Shown: positions 27,366-51,500 of the stretch, piece after piece
Layout of the letters: each line of letters begins with the position of its first letter
How positions within the stretch are numbered: the stretch's first letter is position 1
Assembly: GCF_036507355.1 (NCBI RefSeq)
Contig: NZ_AP027877.1
Length of the DNA stretch: 64,000 nucleotides
Direction: 5' to 3' (one strand)
DNA from: Escherichia coli
Lineage (GTDB): Bacteria; Pseudomonadota; Gammaproteobacteria; Enterobacterales; Enterobacteriaceae
The notes under the pieces: model-generated
The model's database searches: none
Seen by the model: only the letters and a program-made list of their open reading frames with translations
What the model was told of the DNA's origin: nothing
Program-made: the position numbers and the translations under genes

Positions 27366-27545
<180 letters not shown>

Positions 27546-37934: not shown

Positions 37935-41047
<3,113 letters not shown>

Positions 41048-41053
41048 TAATAA

Positions 41054-42352
<1,299 letters not shown>

Positions 42353-42355
42353 GCA

Positions 42356-42400
42356 ATCAATGTCGGATGCGGCGCGAGCGCCTTATCCGACCAACATATC
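42356..42400. repeat. REP element between lacY and lacA
   Basis: tgtcggatgcggcgcgagcgccttatccgacc. Confidence 0.75.
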
Positions 42401-42417
42401 AGGACGGAATGATCGCA

Positions 42418-43027
42418 ATGAACATGTCGATGACAGAAAGAATAAAAGCAGGCAAGCTATTTACCGATATGTGCGAAGGCTTACCGGAAAAAAGACTTCG
42501 TGGGAAAACGTTAATGTATGAGTTTAATCACTCGCATCCATCAGAAGTTGAAAAAAGAGAAAGCCTGATTAAAGAAATGTTTGCCACGGTAGGGGAAAAC
42601 GCCTGGGTAGCCCCCCCGTCTATTTCTCTTACGGTTCCAACATCCATATAGGCCGCAATTTTTATGCAAATTTCAATTTAACCATTGTAGACGACTACAC
42701 GGTAACGATCGGTGATAACGTATTGATTGCACCCAATGTTACTCTTTCCGTTACGGGACACCCTGTACACCATGAATTGAGAAAAACGGTGAGATGTACT
42801 CTTTTCCGATAACGATTGGCAATAATGTCTGGATTGGAAGTCATGTGGTCATTAATCCAGGCGTCACCATCGGGGATAATTCTGTTATTGGCGCGGGTAG
42901 TGTCGTCATAAAAGACATTCCACCAAACGTCGTGGCTGCTGGCGTTCCTTGCCGGGTTATTCGCGAAATAAACGACCGGGATAAGCAATATTATTTCAGA
43001 GATTACAAAGTTGAATCGTCAGTTTAA
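42418..43027 (+). pseudogene. lacA: Galactoside O-acetyltransferase gene with two -1 frameshifts
   Basis: The LacA-like sequence sits in three frames: MNMSMTERIKAGKLF...ENAWV (frame 1, stop at 42649-42651), [55 protein letters not shown] (frame 3), [24 protein letters not shown]...KVESSV (frame 2); the shifts coincide with a C7 run (42611-42617) and an A5 run (42782-42786). Confidence 0.8.
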
Positions 43028-43029
43028 AT

Positions 43030-43105
43030 TATAAAAATTGCCTGATACGCTTCGCTTATCAGGCCTACAAATTCAGTGATCTACGTAGGCCGCATCCGGC
43101 GTGAA
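43030..43105. repeat. REP element(s) between lacA and cynX
   Basis: gcctgatacgcttcgcttatcaggcctac ... gtaggccgcatccggcgtgaac. Confidence 0.75.
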
Positions 43106-43129
43106 CAAAGCGCAGAAACAAGCGTCGCA

Positions 43130-44284
43130 TCATGCCTCTTTGACCCACAGCTGCGGAAAACGTGCTGGTGCAAAACGCAGGGTTATAATCATCAGCCCAA
43201 CGACGCACAGCGCATGAAACGCCCAGTCCATCAGGTAATTGCCGCTGATACTACGCAGCACGCCAGAAAACCACGGGGCAAGCCCGGCGATGATAAAACC
43301 GATCCCCTGCATAAACGCCACCAGCTTGCCAGCAATAGCCGGTTGCACAGAGTGATCGAGAGCCAGCAGCAAACAGAGCGGAAATGCGCCGCCCAGACCT
43401 AAACCACACACCATCGCCCACAATACCGGCAATTGCAGCGGCAGCCAGATAAAGCCGCAGAAACCCACCAGTTGTAACGCCAGTGCCAACAGCAAAAGTT
43501 TGCGCCGATCCTGATGGCGAGCCATAGCAGGCATCAGCAAAGCTCCTGCGGCTTGCCCAAGCGTCATCAATGCCAGCAAGGAACCGCTGTACTGCGCGCT
43601 GGCACCAATCTCAATATAGAAAGCGGGTAACCAGGCAATCAGGCTGGCGTAACCACCGTTAATCAGACCGAAGTAAACACCCAGCGTCCACGCGCGAGGA
43701 GTGAAAACCACGCGAACCGGAGTGGTTGTTGTCTTGTGGGAAGAGGCGACCTCGCGGGTGCTTTGCCACCACCAGGCAAAGAGCGCAACAACGGCAGGCA
43801 GCGCCCACCAGGCGAGTGTTTGATACCAGGTTTCGCTATGTTGAACTAACCAGGGTGTCAGGGCGGCACCAAGCCCACCGCCGCCCATCAGAGCCGCGGA
43901 CCACAGCCCCATCACCAGTGGCGTGCGCTGCTGAAACCGCCGTTTAATCACCGAAGGCATCACCGCCTGAATGATGCCGATCCCCACCCCACCGAGCAGT
44001 GCGCTGCTAAGCAGCAGCGCACTTTGGGGGTAAAGCTCACGCATCAATGCACCGACGGCAATCAGTAACAAACTGATGGCGACGCTGCGACGTTCGCTGA
44101 CATGCTGATGAAGCCAGCTTCCGGCCAGCGCCAGCCCGCCCATGGTAACCACCGGCAGAGCGGTCAACAGGGCAGCCACGCTAAAGCTCATTCCGCTTGC
44201 CTGGCGCAATTGCGGTAGCAGTGGCCCGACGGAGGTGAGCAGTGGTCGCATATTAAGACCAATCAGCACCAGAACCAGCAGCAT
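43130..44284 (-). CDS. cynX: Cyanate transporter (MFS)
   Basis: About 384 aa from MLLVLVLIGLNMRPLLTSVGPLLPQLRQASG...; the track ORF extends to 44311. Confidence 0.9.
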   Translation of the reverse strand: MLLVLVLIGLNMRPLLTSVGPLLPQLRQASGMSFSVAALLTALPVVTMGGLALAGSWLHQHVSERRSVAISLLLIAVGALMRELYPQSALLLSSALLGGVGIGIIQAVMPSVIKRRFQQRTPLVMGLWSAALMGGGGLGAALTPWLVQHSETWYQTLAWWALPAVVALFAWWWQSTREVASSHKTTTTPVRVVFTPRAWTLGVYFGLINGGYASLIAWLPAFYIEIGASAQYSGSLLALMTLGQAAGALLMPAMARHQDRRKLLLLALALQLVGFCGFIWLPLQLPVLWAMVCGLGLGGAFPLCLLLALDHSVQPAIAGKLVAFMQGIGFIIAGLAPWFSGVLRSISGNYLMDWAFHALCVVGLMIITLRFAPARFPQLWVKEA

Positions 44285-44316
44285 CGTGAACGTCTTTTGA
44301 TGGTTACGCATGGCTG

Positions 44317-44805
<489 letters not shown>

Positions 44806-44817
44806 TTAAAAATAAGG

Positions 44818-45477
44818 TTACGCTGCGGTCGGTTGGCGTAGCGGTATGGCACAAACGCGAGGATTAGCGGCCAGTGGCACAAACTGGCGGGTTGCGCCGT
44901 CAAACGCTGCGATGCTGCCGCTTTCAATATCGTAGACCCAGCCGTGCAGGGCGATCCGCCCCTCTTCGAGCGCCAGGCGCACCGATGGATGAGTTTGCAA
45001 ATTAGCCAACTGAGCAATGACGTTTTCACGTACCATCGCCGCAGCTTTTGACGGTAAATCGGAATGCGGGCGCGCCTCATTAACGACGCGGGCTGAATCG
45101 GCATAACGCAGCCAGTGGGAGACGGCAGGCATATGGTCCATGCACTGACAGCTGGCAATGGCGGCCATCGCGCCACAGTTGGAATGACCGCAAATCACAA
45201 TGTCAGATACCCGAAGCGCAGCGACGGCATACTCCACCGAAGCAGAAACGCCACCGGGTTCCGGCCCGTAGGAAGGGACGATATTGCCCGCGTTGCGAAT
45301 AACGAACAGATCGCCAGGCTCACGTTGCGTCACCAGCTCAGGGACCAGACGGCTGTCGGAGCAGGAGATAAAAAGTGTGCGCGGGCTTTGCTGTGTCGCC
45401 AACTGTTTAAATAAGGCTTCCCGCTTCGGAAATGCCTCGCGCTGGAATTTAAGGAATCCATCAATAATCTCTTTCAC
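44818..45477 (-). CDS. cynT: Carbonic anhydrase (beta class)
   Basis: 219-aa ORF with beta-carbonic-anhydrase motifs (CSDSR, HSNCGA). Confidence 0.95.
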
Positions 45478-45586
45478 CGTTAACCTCTATCTGTCTCTGG
45501 AATGAGAGGCAGACTACTCGCCGATTGTCATAAGGTAAAAGTCTCATTTATGATGAGTTCTATTGGATTTACTTATAGGTCGGCGA
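45478..45586. promoter_or_regulatory. Divergent cynR / cynTSX control region
   Basis: Intergenic region between divergent cynT and the LysR-type cynR; individual sites not resolved. Confidence 0.5.
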
Positions 45587-46486
45587 ATGCTCTCTCGACA
45601 TATCAATTATTTTCTTGCCGTGGCTGAACATGGCAGCTTCACCCGTGCCGCCAGTGCGTTGCACGTCTCTCAGCCTGCGCTTTCCCAGCAGATTCGCCAG
45701 TTAGAGGAGAGTTTAGGCGTGCCGCTGTTTGACCGTAGCGGGCGAACGATTCGTCTCACTGATGCAGGAGAAGTCTGGCGACAGTACGCCAGCCGGGCGT
45801 TACAGGAACTGGGGGCGGGTAAACGGGCGATTCATGATGTTGCCGATCTGACGCGAGGATCGCTGCGTATCGCCGTCACCCCCACCTTTACGAGCTACTT
45901 TATCGGCCCCTTAATGGCGGATTTCTATGCGCGCTATCCCGGCATCACGCTCCAGCTACAGGAAATGTCGCAGGAGAAAATCGAAGATCTGCTTTGCCGC
46001 GACGAGTTGGACGTTGGGATTGCCTTCGCGCCTGTGCATTCGCCGGAGCTGGAGGCAATTCCTTTACTGACAGAAAGTTTAGCGTTAGTCGTGGCGCAAC
46101 ATCATCCGCTGGCTGCCTGTGAACAGGTGGCGTTGAGTCGCTTGCATGATGAAAAACTGGTCCTGCTCAGCGCGGAATTTGCCACCAGAGAGCAAATTGA
46201 CCACTACTGCGAGAAAGCGGGGCTGCATCCACAGGTGGTCATTGAGGCGAACTCAATTAGCGCGGTTCTGGAGCTGATTCGCCGCACTTCCCTTTCCACA
46301 TTGTTACCAGCAGCGATTGCCACACAACATGACGGGCTTAAAGCTATTTCTCTTGCCCCGCCACTACTGGAGAGAACGGCGGTTTTGTTGCGGCGGAAAA
46401 ATAGCTGGCAGACAGCCGCCGCGAAGGCATTTTTGCAAATGGCGTTGGATAAATGTGCGGTTGTTGGCGGAAATGAATCGCGGTAA
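45587..46486 (+). CDS. cynR: LysR-type activator of the cyn operon
   Basis: 299 aa from [44 protein letters not shown]...; the track ORF starts 8 codons upstream. Confidence 0.92.
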
Positions 46487-46494
46487 CCACTGAC

Positions 46495-46590
46495 ACAATT
46501 GCCTGATGCGCTACGCTTATCAGGCCTACGAGTTCAGTGCTCTACGTAGGCCGGATAAGGCGTTCACGCCGCATCCGGCATAAACTACGC
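46495..46590. repeat. REP/BIME elements after cynR
   Basis: gcctgatgcgctacgcttatcaggcctac ... gtaggccggataaggcgttcacgccgcatccggca. Confidence 0.8.
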
Positions 46591-46618
46591 TCGCTTTGTC
46601 AACACACAGCCCAGCCGA

Positions 46619-47902
46619 TCACCGTTTGTAATCGATGGCTTCTGGCTGCTCCAGATATACGGTGGTTTGTGCCGGTTGTGTGCTGGCAATCACCTTGCCG
46701 CCACGTACCGAATAACGTACCGGAACCTGACGGCGCAGCGCATCAAATCCATTTTCAGCAGGCAGGATAATCAGGTTGGCGCTGTTTCCGGCGGCAATGC
46801 CGTAATCCTGCAAATTCAACGTCCTGGCGCTGTGGTGGGTGATTAAATTCAGGCCATCGTTAATCTGCCCATAGCCCATCAGCTGGCAAACATGCAGCCC
46901 CATATGCAGCACTTGCAGCATATTCGCCGTTCCCAGCGGATACCACGGATCGAAGACATCATCGTGACCAAAGCAGACGTTAATGCCGGACTCCAGCATC
47001 TCTTTAACGCGCGTGATGCCGCGACGTTTTGGATACGTATCGAAACGCCCTTGCAGATGAATATTGACCAACGGGTTGGCGACAAAGTTAATACCGGACA
47101 TTTTCAGCAAGCGGAACAGGCGTGAGGTATACGCCCCGTTATAGGAGTGCATTGCCGTGGTGTGGCTGGCGGTAACTCGCGCGCCCATGCCTTCACGGTG
47201 CGCCAGGGCAGCAACGGTTTCGACAAAGCGCGACTGTTCGTCATCGATCTCATCACAGTGAACGTCGATCAGACGGTCATATTTTTGCGCCAGGGCGAAG
47301 GTTTTATGCAGCGACTCCACGCCGTATTCACGGGTAAATTCAAAATGCGGAATCGCCCCCACTACGTCTGCCCCTAAGCGTAACGCCTCTTCCAGCAACG
47401 CTTCACCGTTGGGATACGACAAAATCCCTTCCTGAGGGAAGGCGACGATTTGCAGATCAATCCACGGCGCGACTTCCTGCTTCACTTCCAGCATTGCTTT
47501 CAGCGCAGTTAGCGTTGCATCCGAAACATCGACATGGGTACGCACATGCTGAATGCCGTTGGCAATCTGCCATTTCAGCGTTTGCCATGCGCGTTGTTTC
47601 ACATCGTCATGGGTTAATAACGCTTTGCGCTCGGCCCAGCGTTCAATGCCTTCAAACAGCGTGCCGGACTGATTCCAGTTCGGTTGTCCGGCGGTTTGCG
47701 TGGTGTCCAGGTGAATATGTGGCTCCACAAACGGCGGTATAACTAAACCTTGTTCGGCATCCAGGCTGTTTTCAGTTATGGGCATCACCCCGGATTGCAC
47801 ATCAATGGCGCTGATTTTTCCGTCCTGCAGATGAATCTGCCACAGCCCCTCTTTGCCAGGTAACCGGGCGTTAATAATTGTTTGTAAAGCGTTATTCGAC
47901 AC
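46619..47902 (-). CDS. codA: Cytosine deaminase
   Basis: About 427 aa from a GTG start [34 protein letters not shown]...; amidohydrolase motif ([10 protein letters not shown]). Confidence 0.95.
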
Positions 47903-49151
47903 TGTTAGCCTCCACATGCGTCATTGCTGCTGTCGTTTTACGATTCAAAATCGGGTTAAGGATGAGATAGCTCAGCGCGCCACCTAATACCGCGTTGACC
48001 GGAACAATTCCCGGTAACCAGTGGCCTGCAGCAATCCCCAAGGCGACCGCCAGAATCGCCACCCAATTGACACTCATCATACGCGTGGTCGCAAAGTGCT
48101 CATAGCGGCGACGGTTCATCAGATAGTCGGCAATGATCACGCCACCCACCGGAGGAATAGCTGCCGAAAGGAAGGTCAACCAGCCGACAAAATTGTTATA
48201 CAGCCATAATGCGCAGACCGTACCGATAATACCGTTGATTACCGAAAGGGTTTTGCTCGACATACCGGTAATGTTGGCGAAACCTAAACCCGACGCATAG
48301 AGTGCGTTATCGTTGGTGGTCCAGATATTCAGCCCCAGCACCACAATCGCAGGCAACAGCAGGCCCTGAGCAATCATCACATCAGAGATATCCGCCATCC
48401 CCAGTGCCGCAGCGCCCGCTGCACCGAAAATAAACATCAACGAGTTGCCGAGAAAAAAGGCCACCATCGCCACCAGCACCGCCAGTTTGGCATTGCGACC
48501 AAACCGGACAAAGTCGGCGGTGAGCGTACCCGCACTGATAAATGACCCCACAACCAGCGCCAGCGCGACATTGAAATCTAATGGTTGTGCGGGAACGACC
48601 GCTTTTAAGGCGTCCAGGCCGCCCATGCCGTTAACGGCCAGCCACACGGAATAACCGCCAAGACAGGCGATAGCCGGAACCGCAATCACCGAAAGAACCG
48701 TCAGCGCCGAAATGCCAAAGAAGACGGTGACGGTCATCAGTAAACCGGAAACGGCAATCAGCAAATTAATATCCAGCCCGGTTGCCTTACCCACCGGAAT
48801 GGCAAACATCGCCACGCCAACGCCAAACCAGCCAACCTGGGTGCCGCCCAGCAGCAGTGAAGGCAGCCATGAGCCTTTAACACCAAACGAGAAGCGAGCA
48901 AGAAGATGAGTGGTCAGGCCGGTTTTTGCGCCAATGTAACCGAGAAATGAAGTGTAAATACCGAGGAGAAGATTACCGATGAGAACTGCGAGGAAGAAAT
49001 CATGATAGCTAAGACCGGTTCCGAGAGTGCCGCCGGTCCACATACTGGCGGAAAAGAAGGTTAATCCCAGCATGACGAACGTCAATGCCAATACCCCTTT
49101 CCGCGCCGACTGCGGGACTGGCCCCTGGCTAAAGTTGTTATCTTGCGACAC
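47892..49151 (-). CDS. codB: Cytosine permease (NCS1 family)
   Basis: 419-aa polytopic [44 protein letters not shown]... Confidence 0.95.
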
Positions 49152-49299
49152 GAAATTCCCCCTTTTTGCTGTTTGAAACCCAAAAAATCCGCCGCATTCT
49201 ATTCATCTGAAGATAAAAAGCAATCGTTTTCGTGGGGAAATATATTTTTTATATGAATGAGTGCAAAAAGGTGGGGGAAAATTATCGGTGTAAAAACAG

Positions 49300-49565
49300 T
49301 GGGCAGGCATGATAAGACGCGTCAGCGTCGCATCAGGCATCTGAGCATGGTGTCGGATGCGGCGCGAGCGCCTTATCCGACCTACGGTTCAGGCCTGTAG
49401 GCATGATAAGACGCGTCAGCGTCGCATCTGGTATCAGCGCAGGGTGTCGGATGCGACGCGAGCGCCTTATCCGACCTACGGTTCAGGCCTGTAGGCATGA
49501 TAAGACGCGCCAGCGTCGCATCAGGCATCTGCGCACAACTGTCGGATGCGCCACGCGACGCATCC
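49300..49565. repeat. Tandem BIME array (about three REP-pair units, roughly 94-bp period)
   Basis: catgataagacgcg(t/c)cagcgtcgcatc...gtcggatgcg...gcgccttatccgacctacggttcaggcctgtagg repeated head-to-tail between codB and prpE. Confidence 0.85.
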
Positions 49566-49574
49566 GACAATACC

Positions 49575-51461
49575 TTACTCTTCCATCGCCTGGCGGATCT
49601 GATCCAACGACGCCGGATCATCAATGGTCGTCAGATCCCCCGGATCGCGTCCTTCGCAAATCGCCTGGATCGTGCGGCGCAGCATTTTTCCGGATCGCGT
49701 TTTTGGCAATTGCGAGACAAACCAGACGTGCGCCGGGCGGCCAAAGTTGCCAATCTGGCTGTCCACCAGCGCCATAATCGCCTTCTCTTGCGAATGCGCC
49801 ACATCACGATCTTCCAGACTGTCGCTCTCTTTCGGAATGACAAACGCCACCGCCACCTGCCCTTTCAGCGCATCTTTCACCCCAACCACCGCCACTTCGG
49901 CAACGCCCGGATGACTGGAGATACTCTCTTCAATCTCGCGCGTCCCCAGCCGATGCCCGGCAACGTTAATCACATCGTCAGTGCGCCCGAGAATAAAGTG
50001 ATAACCGTCAGCATCGCGGATGCCCCAGTCAAAGGTGGCGTACACCGGGCGGGAAAACAGCGACCAGTACGTCTTCACAAAGCGGTCGTCATCGCCCCAG
50101 ATGGTCTGAATACACCCCGGCGGCAGCGGCCCTTCCACCACCAGCATCCCTTTCTCGTTAACGCCACACGGTTCGCCGGTGACTTCATTAAGCAACTGCA
50201 CGTTATAGCCATACATCGGCACGCCGGGGCTTCCCAGACGCGTCGGCCTGTCGTCCAGACCGCGAGCAATTGCCATAATCGGCCAGCCGGATTCGGTCTG
50301 CCAGTAGTTGTCGATGACCGGCACATCCAGCGTATTGCTCACCCAACTGGCGGTCGGCTCGTCCAGCGGCTCCCCCGCCAGATAGAGAACTTCCAGCGAC
50401 GAAAGATCGTGTTTGCGAATTTCAGCGGTAGGGAATTTTTTCAGCACGCGAATGGCGGTCGGCGCTGAGAACATCCGGCTCACCTGATATTTCTCGACGA
50501 TTTTCCACCACACGCCGCAGTCCGGCCAGGTCGGTAATCCTTCGTAAACGATAGTCGCCATCCCCGCCAGCAGCGGCGCGTAGACGATATACGAATGCCC
50601 CACCACCCAGCCGATATCCGAAGCACAAAAGAACACGCCGCCCGCTTTGCCGCCAAAAATGGTGTCCATCGAGGTCGCCAGCGCCACCGCATATCCGCCA
50701 ACGTCACGCTGCACGCCTTTAGGTTTGCCGGTCGTGCCGGAGGTGTAGAGAATGCAGGAGGTTTCGTTGGATTCCAGCCACGCCACCGGTACCCGCGCGC
50801 CGATGTGTTGATGGCGCAACGACGCGAAATCGACATCCCGCCCGCTGACGCGCGCCATTTTCGCCAGCCCGCGATCCACCAGCAAAACATGGCGTGGCTG
50901 GTGCTGCGCCTGACTTATCGCATCGTCGAGCAATTTTTTATAGGGAATGATTTTGCCACCGCGCGCTCCGGCATCAGCCGAGACAATCAGCACCGGTTTA
51001 GCATCATCAATTCGCGCCGCCACGCTATGAGAGGCAAATCCACCAAACACCACCGAGTGAATAGCGCCAATGCGCGCGCAGGCCAGCAGGGTAATATGCG
51101 CCTCGGCAATCATCGGCATATACACCAGCACCCGATCGCCACGCTGCACGCCCAGCGAGCGCAGCATTGACGCCACCGCGTTTACTTCGTCATGAAGCTG
51201 GCGAAAGGTAAAGGTGCGCTCTTCTTCTGTTTCCGAAGAGACGGCAATCAGCGCCAGCGCCTCTGGCTGTTTCTCCAGCCAGCGATCGATAGCGTTGTGA
51301 CACAAGTTGGTTCGGCCTTCACAAAACCAACGGGCAAACGGCGGATTGCTGTGATCGAGCGTTTGCGTAAAGGGCGTCTGCCAGTCAATACGCCGGGCCT
51401 GCTCGGCCCAGAACTGCTCCGGTTCGTTAATCGAACGCTGATAAAATTCGCTAAAAGACAT
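49575..51461 (-). CDS. prpE: Propionate--CoA ligase
   Basis: 628-aa acyl-CoA synthetase ORF MSFSEFYQRSINEPEQFWAEQARRIDWQTPF... Confidence 0.95.
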   Translation of the reverse strand: MSFSEFYQRSINEPEQFWAEQARRIDWQTPFTQTLDHSNPPFARWFCEGRTNLCHNAIDRWLEKQPEALALIAVSSETEEERTFTFRQLHDEVNAVASMLRSLGVQRGDRVLVYMPMIAEAHITLLACARIGAIHSVVFGGFASHSVAARIDDAKPVLIVSADAGARGGKIIPYKKLLDDAISQAQHQPRHVLLVDRGLAKMARVSGRDVDFASLRHQHIGARVPVAWLESNETSCILYTSGTTGKPKGVQRDVGGYAVALATSMDTIFGGKAGGVFFCASDIGWVVGHSYIVYAPLLAGMATIVYEGLPTWPDCGVWWKIVEKYQVSRMFSAPTAIRVLKKFPTAEIRKHDLSSLEVLYLAGEPLDEPTASWVSNTLDVPVIDNYWQTESGWPIMAIARGLDDRPTRLGSPGVPMYGYNVQLLNEVTGEPCGVNEKGMLVVEGPLPPGCIQTIWGDDDRFVKTYWSLFSRPVYATFDWGIRDADGYHFILGRTDDVINVAGHRLGTREIEESISSHPGVAEVAVVGVKDALKGQVAVAFVIPKESDSLEDRDVAHSQEKAIMALVDSQIGNFGRPAHVWFVSQLPKTRSGKMLRRTIQAICEGRDPGDLTTIDDPASLDQIRQAMEE

Positions 51462-51500
51462 AATGCTCTCCTGTTGAACTTACGCCTTACCGCCGTTTAC

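Follow-up and report, generated by a model that had tools for sequence, protein, structure and literature searches.

A strain-variable array of BIME-2 type between prpE and codB of Escherichia coli as a candidate terminator and stabiliser of prp mRNA

Introduction

Between prpE, which encodes propionyl-CoA synthetase, and codB, which encodes cytosine permease, the Escherichia coli DNA analysed here carries a long array of inverted REP sequences, and the question that this locus raises is what such an array does, if it does anything, for the genes on either side of it. One well-described class of REP arrangement, BIME-2, is built from Z2 and Y REPs that are joined by short linkers and repeated several times in tandem (Ton-Hoang et al. 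2012, PMC3333891), and variation of BIME-2 copy number between strains has already been published in general terms (PMC3333891). In a searchable literature library we found no paper that names prpE, codB and REPs together. We examine here the composition of the array, its placement relative to its neighbours, the folding of its transcript and its variation between strains, and weigh the roles that have been or could be proposed for it.

Results

By the window we mean the whole stretch of DNA that was analysed, 64,000 nucleotides in length. Tandem Repeats Finder reports a repeat at 49305-49550 with a period of 94, 2.6 copies, 90% matches, no indels and a score of 413, against a score of 43 for the runner-up in the window. 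A repeat search divided the same region into two 94-nt units (49305-49398 and 49399-49492) that are 94% identical, followed by a partial third copy of 43 nt at 49493-49535, and together with REP typing it showed that every unit contains two REPs in mutually inverted orientation. A whole-window repeat scan returned REP/BIME-related families only, among which the prpE-codB array is the longest. The full structure extends from 49303 to 49571: the third Y position, nearest to prpE, is taken by a modified, perfect hairpin (49538-49571), here called P, of which the period-94 alignment catches part. Because the proximal third Y has this modified form, a count of about three units is correct if it is written [P/Y - Z2] x 3. 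The original prediction, namely about three tandem BIME units with a period of 94, each a pair of inverted REPs, that form the largest repeat of the window, is thereby confirmed, its extent being corrected to run to 49571. We also agree that this is not a CRISPR array, since the repeats alternate in orientation and the intervening 11-16-nt linkers are conserved both between units and between strains.

REPs were typed with blastn-short against the Y, Z1 and Z2 consensus sequences given in Durrant et al. 2024 (PMC11208160). Three Z2 REPs were found at 95-100% identity to the queries and two Y REPs at 97-100% identity to the array Y; these Y REPs are about 86-89% identical to the canonical Y, one stem pair being compensated, and REP typing found no Z1 REP in the array. 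Matches of the 35-37-nt REPs to the consensus sequences reach E=1e-13 to 1e-15, which excludes a chance origin of the array. Read on the prpE-sense (minus) strand, the order is P, Z2>, <Y, Z2>, <Y, Z2>, so that the whole array (49303-49571, minus strand) comprises three units, each made of a Y-type hairpin, a head-to-head linker of 11-16 nt and a Z2, and joined to the next by an 11-nt tail-to-tail linker, AGGCCTGAACC. Hairpin P (49538-49571, minus strand), a Y-derived and "perfected" inverted repeat with 100% complementarity, comes first. Z2 no. 1 (49491-49527, minus strand; 97% to the Z2 consensus/array query, E=2.5e-14) reads head-to-tail on the minus strand, ends in ...CCTAC and passes through the 11-nt linker into Y no. 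1 (49445-49479, plus strand; blastn-short 97%, E=3.6e-13; hairpin of -16.1 kcal/mol), which runs head-to-tail on the plus strand and presents GTAGG first on the prpE-sense strand. A 16-nt head-to-head linker separates Y no. 1 from Z2 no. 2 (49397-49428, minus strand), whose head is diverged, with TACCAGATGCG in place of TGCCTGATGCG, and whose hairpin is weaker (-11.2 kcal/mol). After a second copy of the 11-nt tail-to-tail linker follow Y no. 2 (49351-49385, plus strand; 100% to the array Y query, E=1.5e-15; hairpin of -18.8 kcal/mol), a head-to-head linker of 11 nt and, at the distal end of the array, Z2 no. 3 (49303-49339, minus strand), with the tail CCTGC in place of CCTAC. The tetranucleotide GTAG/CTAC at the foot of the stem is present in four of the five full REPs and reads CTGC in the last Z2, while P carries GTAA where REPs carry GTAG.

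On this sequence evidence the array is assigned to BIME-2, as a series of alternating Y and Z2 REP hairpins. Y and Z2 alternate over three tandem units with linkers of 11-16 nt, and the number of units varies between strains. The component REPs are imperfect palindromes of 30-40 nt that match the Y or Z2 consensus; they are extragenic, lying between the prpE stop and the codB start, and repeated genome-wide, with seven further REP loci in the window and a median of about 19 matching places per E. coli genome. BIME-1, or RIP (Z1, L linker, Y), resembles the array in being extragenic and composed of two inverted REPs, but differs in being single-copy, in having Z1 rather than Z2 and in its long L linker with an IHF site. 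We rejected BIME-1 as a classification because the array is tandem and has no Z1, no long L linker and no IHF consensus: WATCAANNNNTTR has no match in 49152-49574. The suggestion that the array binds IHF is not supported by these features. Elsewhere in the window the IHF consensus has 8 matches, against 2.4 expected, and an exact one, TATCAACTTGTTA, lies at 55216-55228 in the divergent prpR-prpB control region. The window also holds two 67-nt pairs of Z1, a 16-nt linker and Y (43036-43102 and 46497-46563), with 88% identity between them. The cyn genes neighbour one of the pairs and the second lies downstream of codA; their short tail-to-tail linker is not the long L of classical BIME-1.

Assignment to BIME-2 brings with it a possible role independent of transcription, in which the array would be a site of gyrase binding and cleavage, absorb positive supercoils in front of prp transcription and separate prp and cod topologically. 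Gyrase cleavage sites are over-represented in BIME-2 elements, mainly at Y REPs, and cleavage there persists or rises with rifampicin (PMC6379681); the present array has two intact Y REPs and one Y-derived hairpin. The same study places cleavage sites in only a subset of BIME-2 elements, and prpE and codB are absent from two of its supplementary files, a weak counter-argument since the relevant table may lie elsewhere (PMC6379681). We consider a gyrase site unlikely to be what this array chiefly represents.

Three matches to the Rfam family naRNA4 (RF02564) cover the array in register and on the prpE-sense strand, one for each unit. That at 49306-49382 (minus strand), spanning Z2 no. 3 and Y no. 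2, scores 68.9 bits against a gathering score of 59.5, and the two others, at 52.7 and 51.4 bits, fall below the gathering score with E about 1e-8. At Rfam gathering thresholds naRNA4 is the only family detected in the window; matches of the array to mir-5856 and isrG are sub-threshold and were set aside as noise. These scores could be taken to mean that the array yields naRNA4-like nucleoid-associated RNAs which act with HU in bridging cruciforms and compacting the chromosome, a model proposed for the REP325 array (PMC4550694): one unit exceeds the gathering threshold, and the other two are detected at E<1e-7. The Rfam model, though, was built from the 77-nt Y-linker-Z2 unit of REP325, and a match to it indicates only a Y-linker-Z2 pair. 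For REP325 itself no measurable role in nucleoid compaction was found (bioRxiv 10.64898/2026.03.23.713779), and we hold production of such RNAs at prpE-codB to be very unlikely. The strongest naRNA4 match in the window is at another locus, 27393-27470 (plus strand; 88 bits), within a Y-Z2-Y BIME-2 at 27390-27525. Over 61 nt, the Y head, linker and Z2 of that element match the complement of the proximal prpE array at 92% identity.

The orientation of the flanking genes bears directly on what the array could terminate. Open reading frames and annotated matches place it between prpE (49575-51461, minus strand; 628 aa, C-terminus ...IRQAMEE and stop) and codB (47892-49151, minus strand; 419 aa, GTG start at 49151), as had been predicted. 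The two operons had been called convergent. This is incorrect, since they point the same way, prpE and codB lying together on the minus strand here and on the plus strand in K-12. With both genes on one strand, the array is downstream of prpE and upstream of a codBA promoter-like site, within a tandem gene pair, and it takes up all of the 3′ untranslated region of prpBCDE. The promoter-like site (49239-49267, minus strand), TTTGCA and TATATT separated by 17 nt, lies about 38 nt beyond the array end; it is a match from a consensus scan, which is not in itself evidence of function. A terminator that serves convergent operons in both directions and has IHF bound to it has general precedent, in that REPs are common between convergent genes and correlate there with higher expression of both (bioRxiv 10.64898/2026.03.23.713779) and BIME-1 elements bind IHF (PMC3333891). 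At this locus it is refuted by gene orientation; the REPs, of Y and Z2 type with neither an L linker nor an IHF consensus, speak against it as well, and we give it next to no credence.

Intrinsic (Rho-independent) termination was considered separately and rejected. No terminator-like site was detected on the minus strand in 48900-49900, there being no GC-rich hairpin followed by a U tract on the prpE-sense strand; the sole T run, TGTTTTTAC at 49290-49298, lies about 9 nt past the last Z2 stem. Open reading frames that overlap the array, for example 49382-49624 (minus strand, 80 aa) and 49403-49777 (plus strand, 124 aa), were dismissed as by-products of the repeats or as antisense to prpE.

Hairpin P begins 3 nt past the prpE stop codon, TAA (49577-49575). 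It has a perfect 11-bp core stem (49540-49550 paired with 49559-49569), forms 15 pairs when folded as RNA and reaches a minimum free energy (MFE) of -25.2 kcal/mol, with z = -7.0. P retains the Y head arm, CGCATCCGACA, to which its opposite arm is complementary at every position, and this identifies P as a Y REP turned into a perfect palindrome; template switching within the quasi-palindrome is one way in which we infer that the conversion could have come about. Where the window has P, the B2 strain clone D i14 has an intact Y REP, and there the GTAG of the REP contains the prpE TAG stop, the junction reading GAG-TAG-GTCGGATAAGG... (L007 470-490). In alleles of this B2 type a REP abuts the prpE coding sequence and in effect supplies its end. 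The Y1 transposase TnpA-REP recognises GTAG plus a stem mismatch (PMC3333891), and since P has lost both it is probably a poor substrate for that enzyme.

So close an approach of a stable hairpin to the stop codon could have consequences for translation: terminating ribosomes would stall at it, with mRNA cleavage, rescue by tmRNA and a reduced yield of PrpE. According to PMC12306157, which cites Liang et al. 2015, REPs within 15 nt of a stop codon stall ribosomes; P starts 3 nt after TAA, and the B2 allele has its TAG inside the GTAG of an intact Y. The effect is reported for a few genes only, and P is not a canonical REP; stalling is in our judgement an improbable explanation of the array.

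Folded as a whole, the prpE-sense RNA (49290-49580, minus strand) has a predicted free energy of -149 kcal/mol, compared with -106.5 +/- 5.4 kcal/mol for shuffled sequences (z = -7.8). Single REP hairpins account for -11 to -19 kcal/mol, whereas Z2/Y pairs folded as long hairpins give -39 to -46 kcal/mol, and the MFE structure accordingly joins each Z2 with the next Y instead of forming single REP hairpins. Because the MFE fold favours Z2/Y pairing over single hairpins, the structure adopted in vivo is uncertain.

The comparison of copy number among strains that the original prediction had proposed shows it to vary, with 1, 2, 3, 5, 6 or 8 units in the E. coli genomes sampled. Using the two flanks alone as query, we sized alleles in 60 rows sampled systematically from 5,232 matching records and found one unit in 17, two units (the K-12 type) in 24, three in 4, five in 1, six in 1 and eight in 8, the remaining 5 being interrupted or matched at one flank. 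A second 60-row sample, obtained with the 8-unit allele as query and sized from the spans of the matches listed, gave a similar picture. These two spread samples, drawn from a RefSeq collection with many O157:H7 genomes, are biased and do not amount to a full census of unit counts, which short-read assemblies could also affect by collapsing arrays. Loss of the element was not seen among the informative sampled genomes, each of which keeps at least one unit.

Base-by-base comparison of nine alleles showed that they differ by whole units in register and that a small stock of linker and loop variants recurs among the units in mosaic combinations. Across the 18 units that these nine alleles provide, the differences cluster in the head-to-head linker, where 8 of 13 columns vary, and in the Z2 loop; the Y 5′ arm does not vary, and the stems hardly do. 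Several O157:H7 genomes share the 8-unit allele at 100% identity. In O157:H7 M1300706002 (L010) the array corresponds exactly to units 1, 2 and 8 of the eight found in O157:H7 SS TX 313-1 (L002). This difference of five 94-bp units within O157:H7 is due either to a recent deletion that kept the register or to collapse of the array during assembly.

In some strains the last Z2 is interrupted by IS621, and flanks split in this way were seen in 4 of the 60 sampled genomes. IS621 belongs to the IS110 family and encodes a bridge-RNA recombinase, and its natural target is the one at ATCAGGCCT^AC (PMC11208160); in E. coli SCEC020022 (L003 3300-4620) the insertion lies in the tail of the last Z2, precisely at ATCAGGCCT^AC. 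The exact IS621 target is absent from the array of the window, which has two ATCATGCCTAC sites only.

Toleration of 1 to 8 units and of the IS621 insertion fits weak or no selection on array size, and it is here that the array may be read as selfish or neutral repeat DNA with no function specific to this locus, a cluster that the REP-associated transposase (TnpA-REP/RAYT) or slippage would spread and resize and that would be tolerated for lying outside genes. It has been published that TnpA-REP cleaves and recombines BIMEs (PMC3333891), and the mosaic units, the three-unit O157:H7 allele and the insertion in the last Z2 are all what such a history could leave behind. Set against this are the conservation of the stems while linkers and loops vary, the retention of the element in every informative genome sampled, and the measurable effect on neighbouring genes of REP325, the closest characterised array. 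We regard neutrality as possible but not likely, and a neutral origin would in any case be compatible with a present effect, since origin and effect can differ.

The allele of the window is itself distinctive. As a three-unit allele it differs from that of every complete genome sampled, and its middle unit has a head-to-head linker variant absent from the eight other alleles compared. The best match to the locus among the complete genomes sampled is 98.4% over 1 kb, and over the 20 kb around it (window 40000-60000) none of 5,426 complete E. coli genomes exceeds 98.3% identity. The gene order, lacZYA, cyn, codBA, prp, is nevertheless the standard one. The source lineage seems not to be represented among those 5,426 genomes.

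Other REPs in the window share features with the array. The compensated Y stem, GTCGGA...TCCGAC, occurs at 42361-42392, 49351-49479 and 54197-54232, that is, 8 nt after the lacY stop, in the prpE-codB array and in the prpB-prpC spacer, while the canonical GCCGGA...TCCGGC is found at 25.3, 27.4 and 46.5 kb; a compensated REP sub-variant may have spread locally. The element in the prpB-prpC spacer is a pair of Y-like and Z2-like REPs (54197-54279) inside the prp operon, between prpB (stop at 54311) and prpC. This internal BIME could give segments of the prp operon differential stability.

Discussion

Identification of the array leads to the question of its function, and the reading that we hold to be probable is that it acts as a dual terminator and stabiliser in the 3′ untranslated region of prp mRNA, attenuating read-through into codBA. 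As proposed, the array would be transcribed as the tail of the prp mRNA, where its stacked hairpins would block 3′-to-5′ exonucleases and so stabilise the upstream prp transcript. The same hairpins would attenuate read-through into codBA, partly through Rho, and the combination would insulate the prp and cod operons from each other. This role is preferred because the architecture is like that of REP325, because the genes form a tandem pair and because no intrinsic terminator follows prpE. Gyrase binding, ribosome stalling and neutral selfish DNA are alternatives to it that are not mutually exclusive with it.

Much of this argument is by analogy with REP325, which lies between yjdM and yjdN in K-12, is the source of naRNA1-6 and has the form [GTAGG-Y, linker, Z2-CCTAC] x 6, with a period of 100, downstream of yjdM. 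Deletion of REP325 raises expression of the downstream yjdN about 8-10 fold and lowers that of the upstream yjdM, and the array gives rise to a ladder of hairpin-ended transcripts; REP325 is described as attenuating the downstream gene in a partly Rho-dependent manner and as stabilising the upstream transcript (bioRxiv 10.64898/2026.03.23.713779). The prpE array has the same Y-linker-Z2 order and the same orientation relative to the upstream gene; both arrays lie in tandem gene pairs and start shortly after the upstream stop codon, and the Rfam model derived from REP325 matches three of three prpE units. There are also differences. REP325 has six units, the longer period and a 23-nt tail-to-tail spacer, compared with a period of 94 and an 11-nt spacer in the prpE array; its Y is canonical (GCCGGA...TCCGGC) where that of the prpE array is compensated (GTCGGA...TCCGAC); and its first element, unlike that of the prpE array, is not a perfect hairpin. 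A further difference concerns the downstream gene: no separate promoter for yjdN is described in the REP325 preprint, whereas codBA has a promoter-like site of its own, and given this putative promoter the insulation of codBA by the array may be of little importance. The same preprint finds REP effects to be context-dependent, with terminal REPs not generally lengthening mRNA half-lives (bioRxiv 10.64898/2026.03.23.713779).

Other known systems resemble the array in part. REP stabilisers of the malE-malF and gdhA type likewise place GC-rich REP hairpins downstream of a coding region, and such hairpins are 3′-exonuclease barriers according to the literature summarised in PMC12306157; they have one to three REPs, fewer than the prpE array. 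The unit of the array, an inverted REP doublet, is that of REPIN/RAYT systems, from which the locus differs in that no RAYT gene was identified there. The nearest relative is the prpE-codB BIME of K-12 MG1655, which shares with the window its flanks, proximal hairpin, Y and Z2 types and linkers. It has two units in a 329-bp intergenic region, compared with three units in 423 bp here, and its last unit matches that of the window except for one base in the Y stem (GCGTC in K-12, GCGCC in the window) and two in the Z2 tail.

If the array is a terminator and stabiliser of prp mRNA, its variation between strains takes on a possible regulatory meaning. Unit number would change by gain or loss of whole units, through unequal recombination, slippage or TnpA(REP), and could tune the strength of the effect. 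In the most developed form of this idea the array would be a heritable, stepwise "dial", with the number of units setting both the survival of the prp transcript and the leak into codBA, and with the perfected P, as no substrate for the REP transposase, anchoring the array and stalling ribosomes. We offer this only as a speculation, and consider it decidedly unlikely in its full form.

BIME-2 arrays, their variable copy number, their affinity for gyrase and their effects in 3′ untranslated regions have all been described before, and the locus is present in K-12; neither the kind of element to which the prpE-codB array belongs nor its location is new. It is mildly unusual in its allelic series of 1 to 8 units, in the stop codon that lies within a REP and in its perfected proximal hairpin. 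Alleles with 1, 2, 3, 5, 6 and 8 units, together with those interrupted by IS621, constitute a natural series in which the number of REPs can be set against termination and stabilisation.
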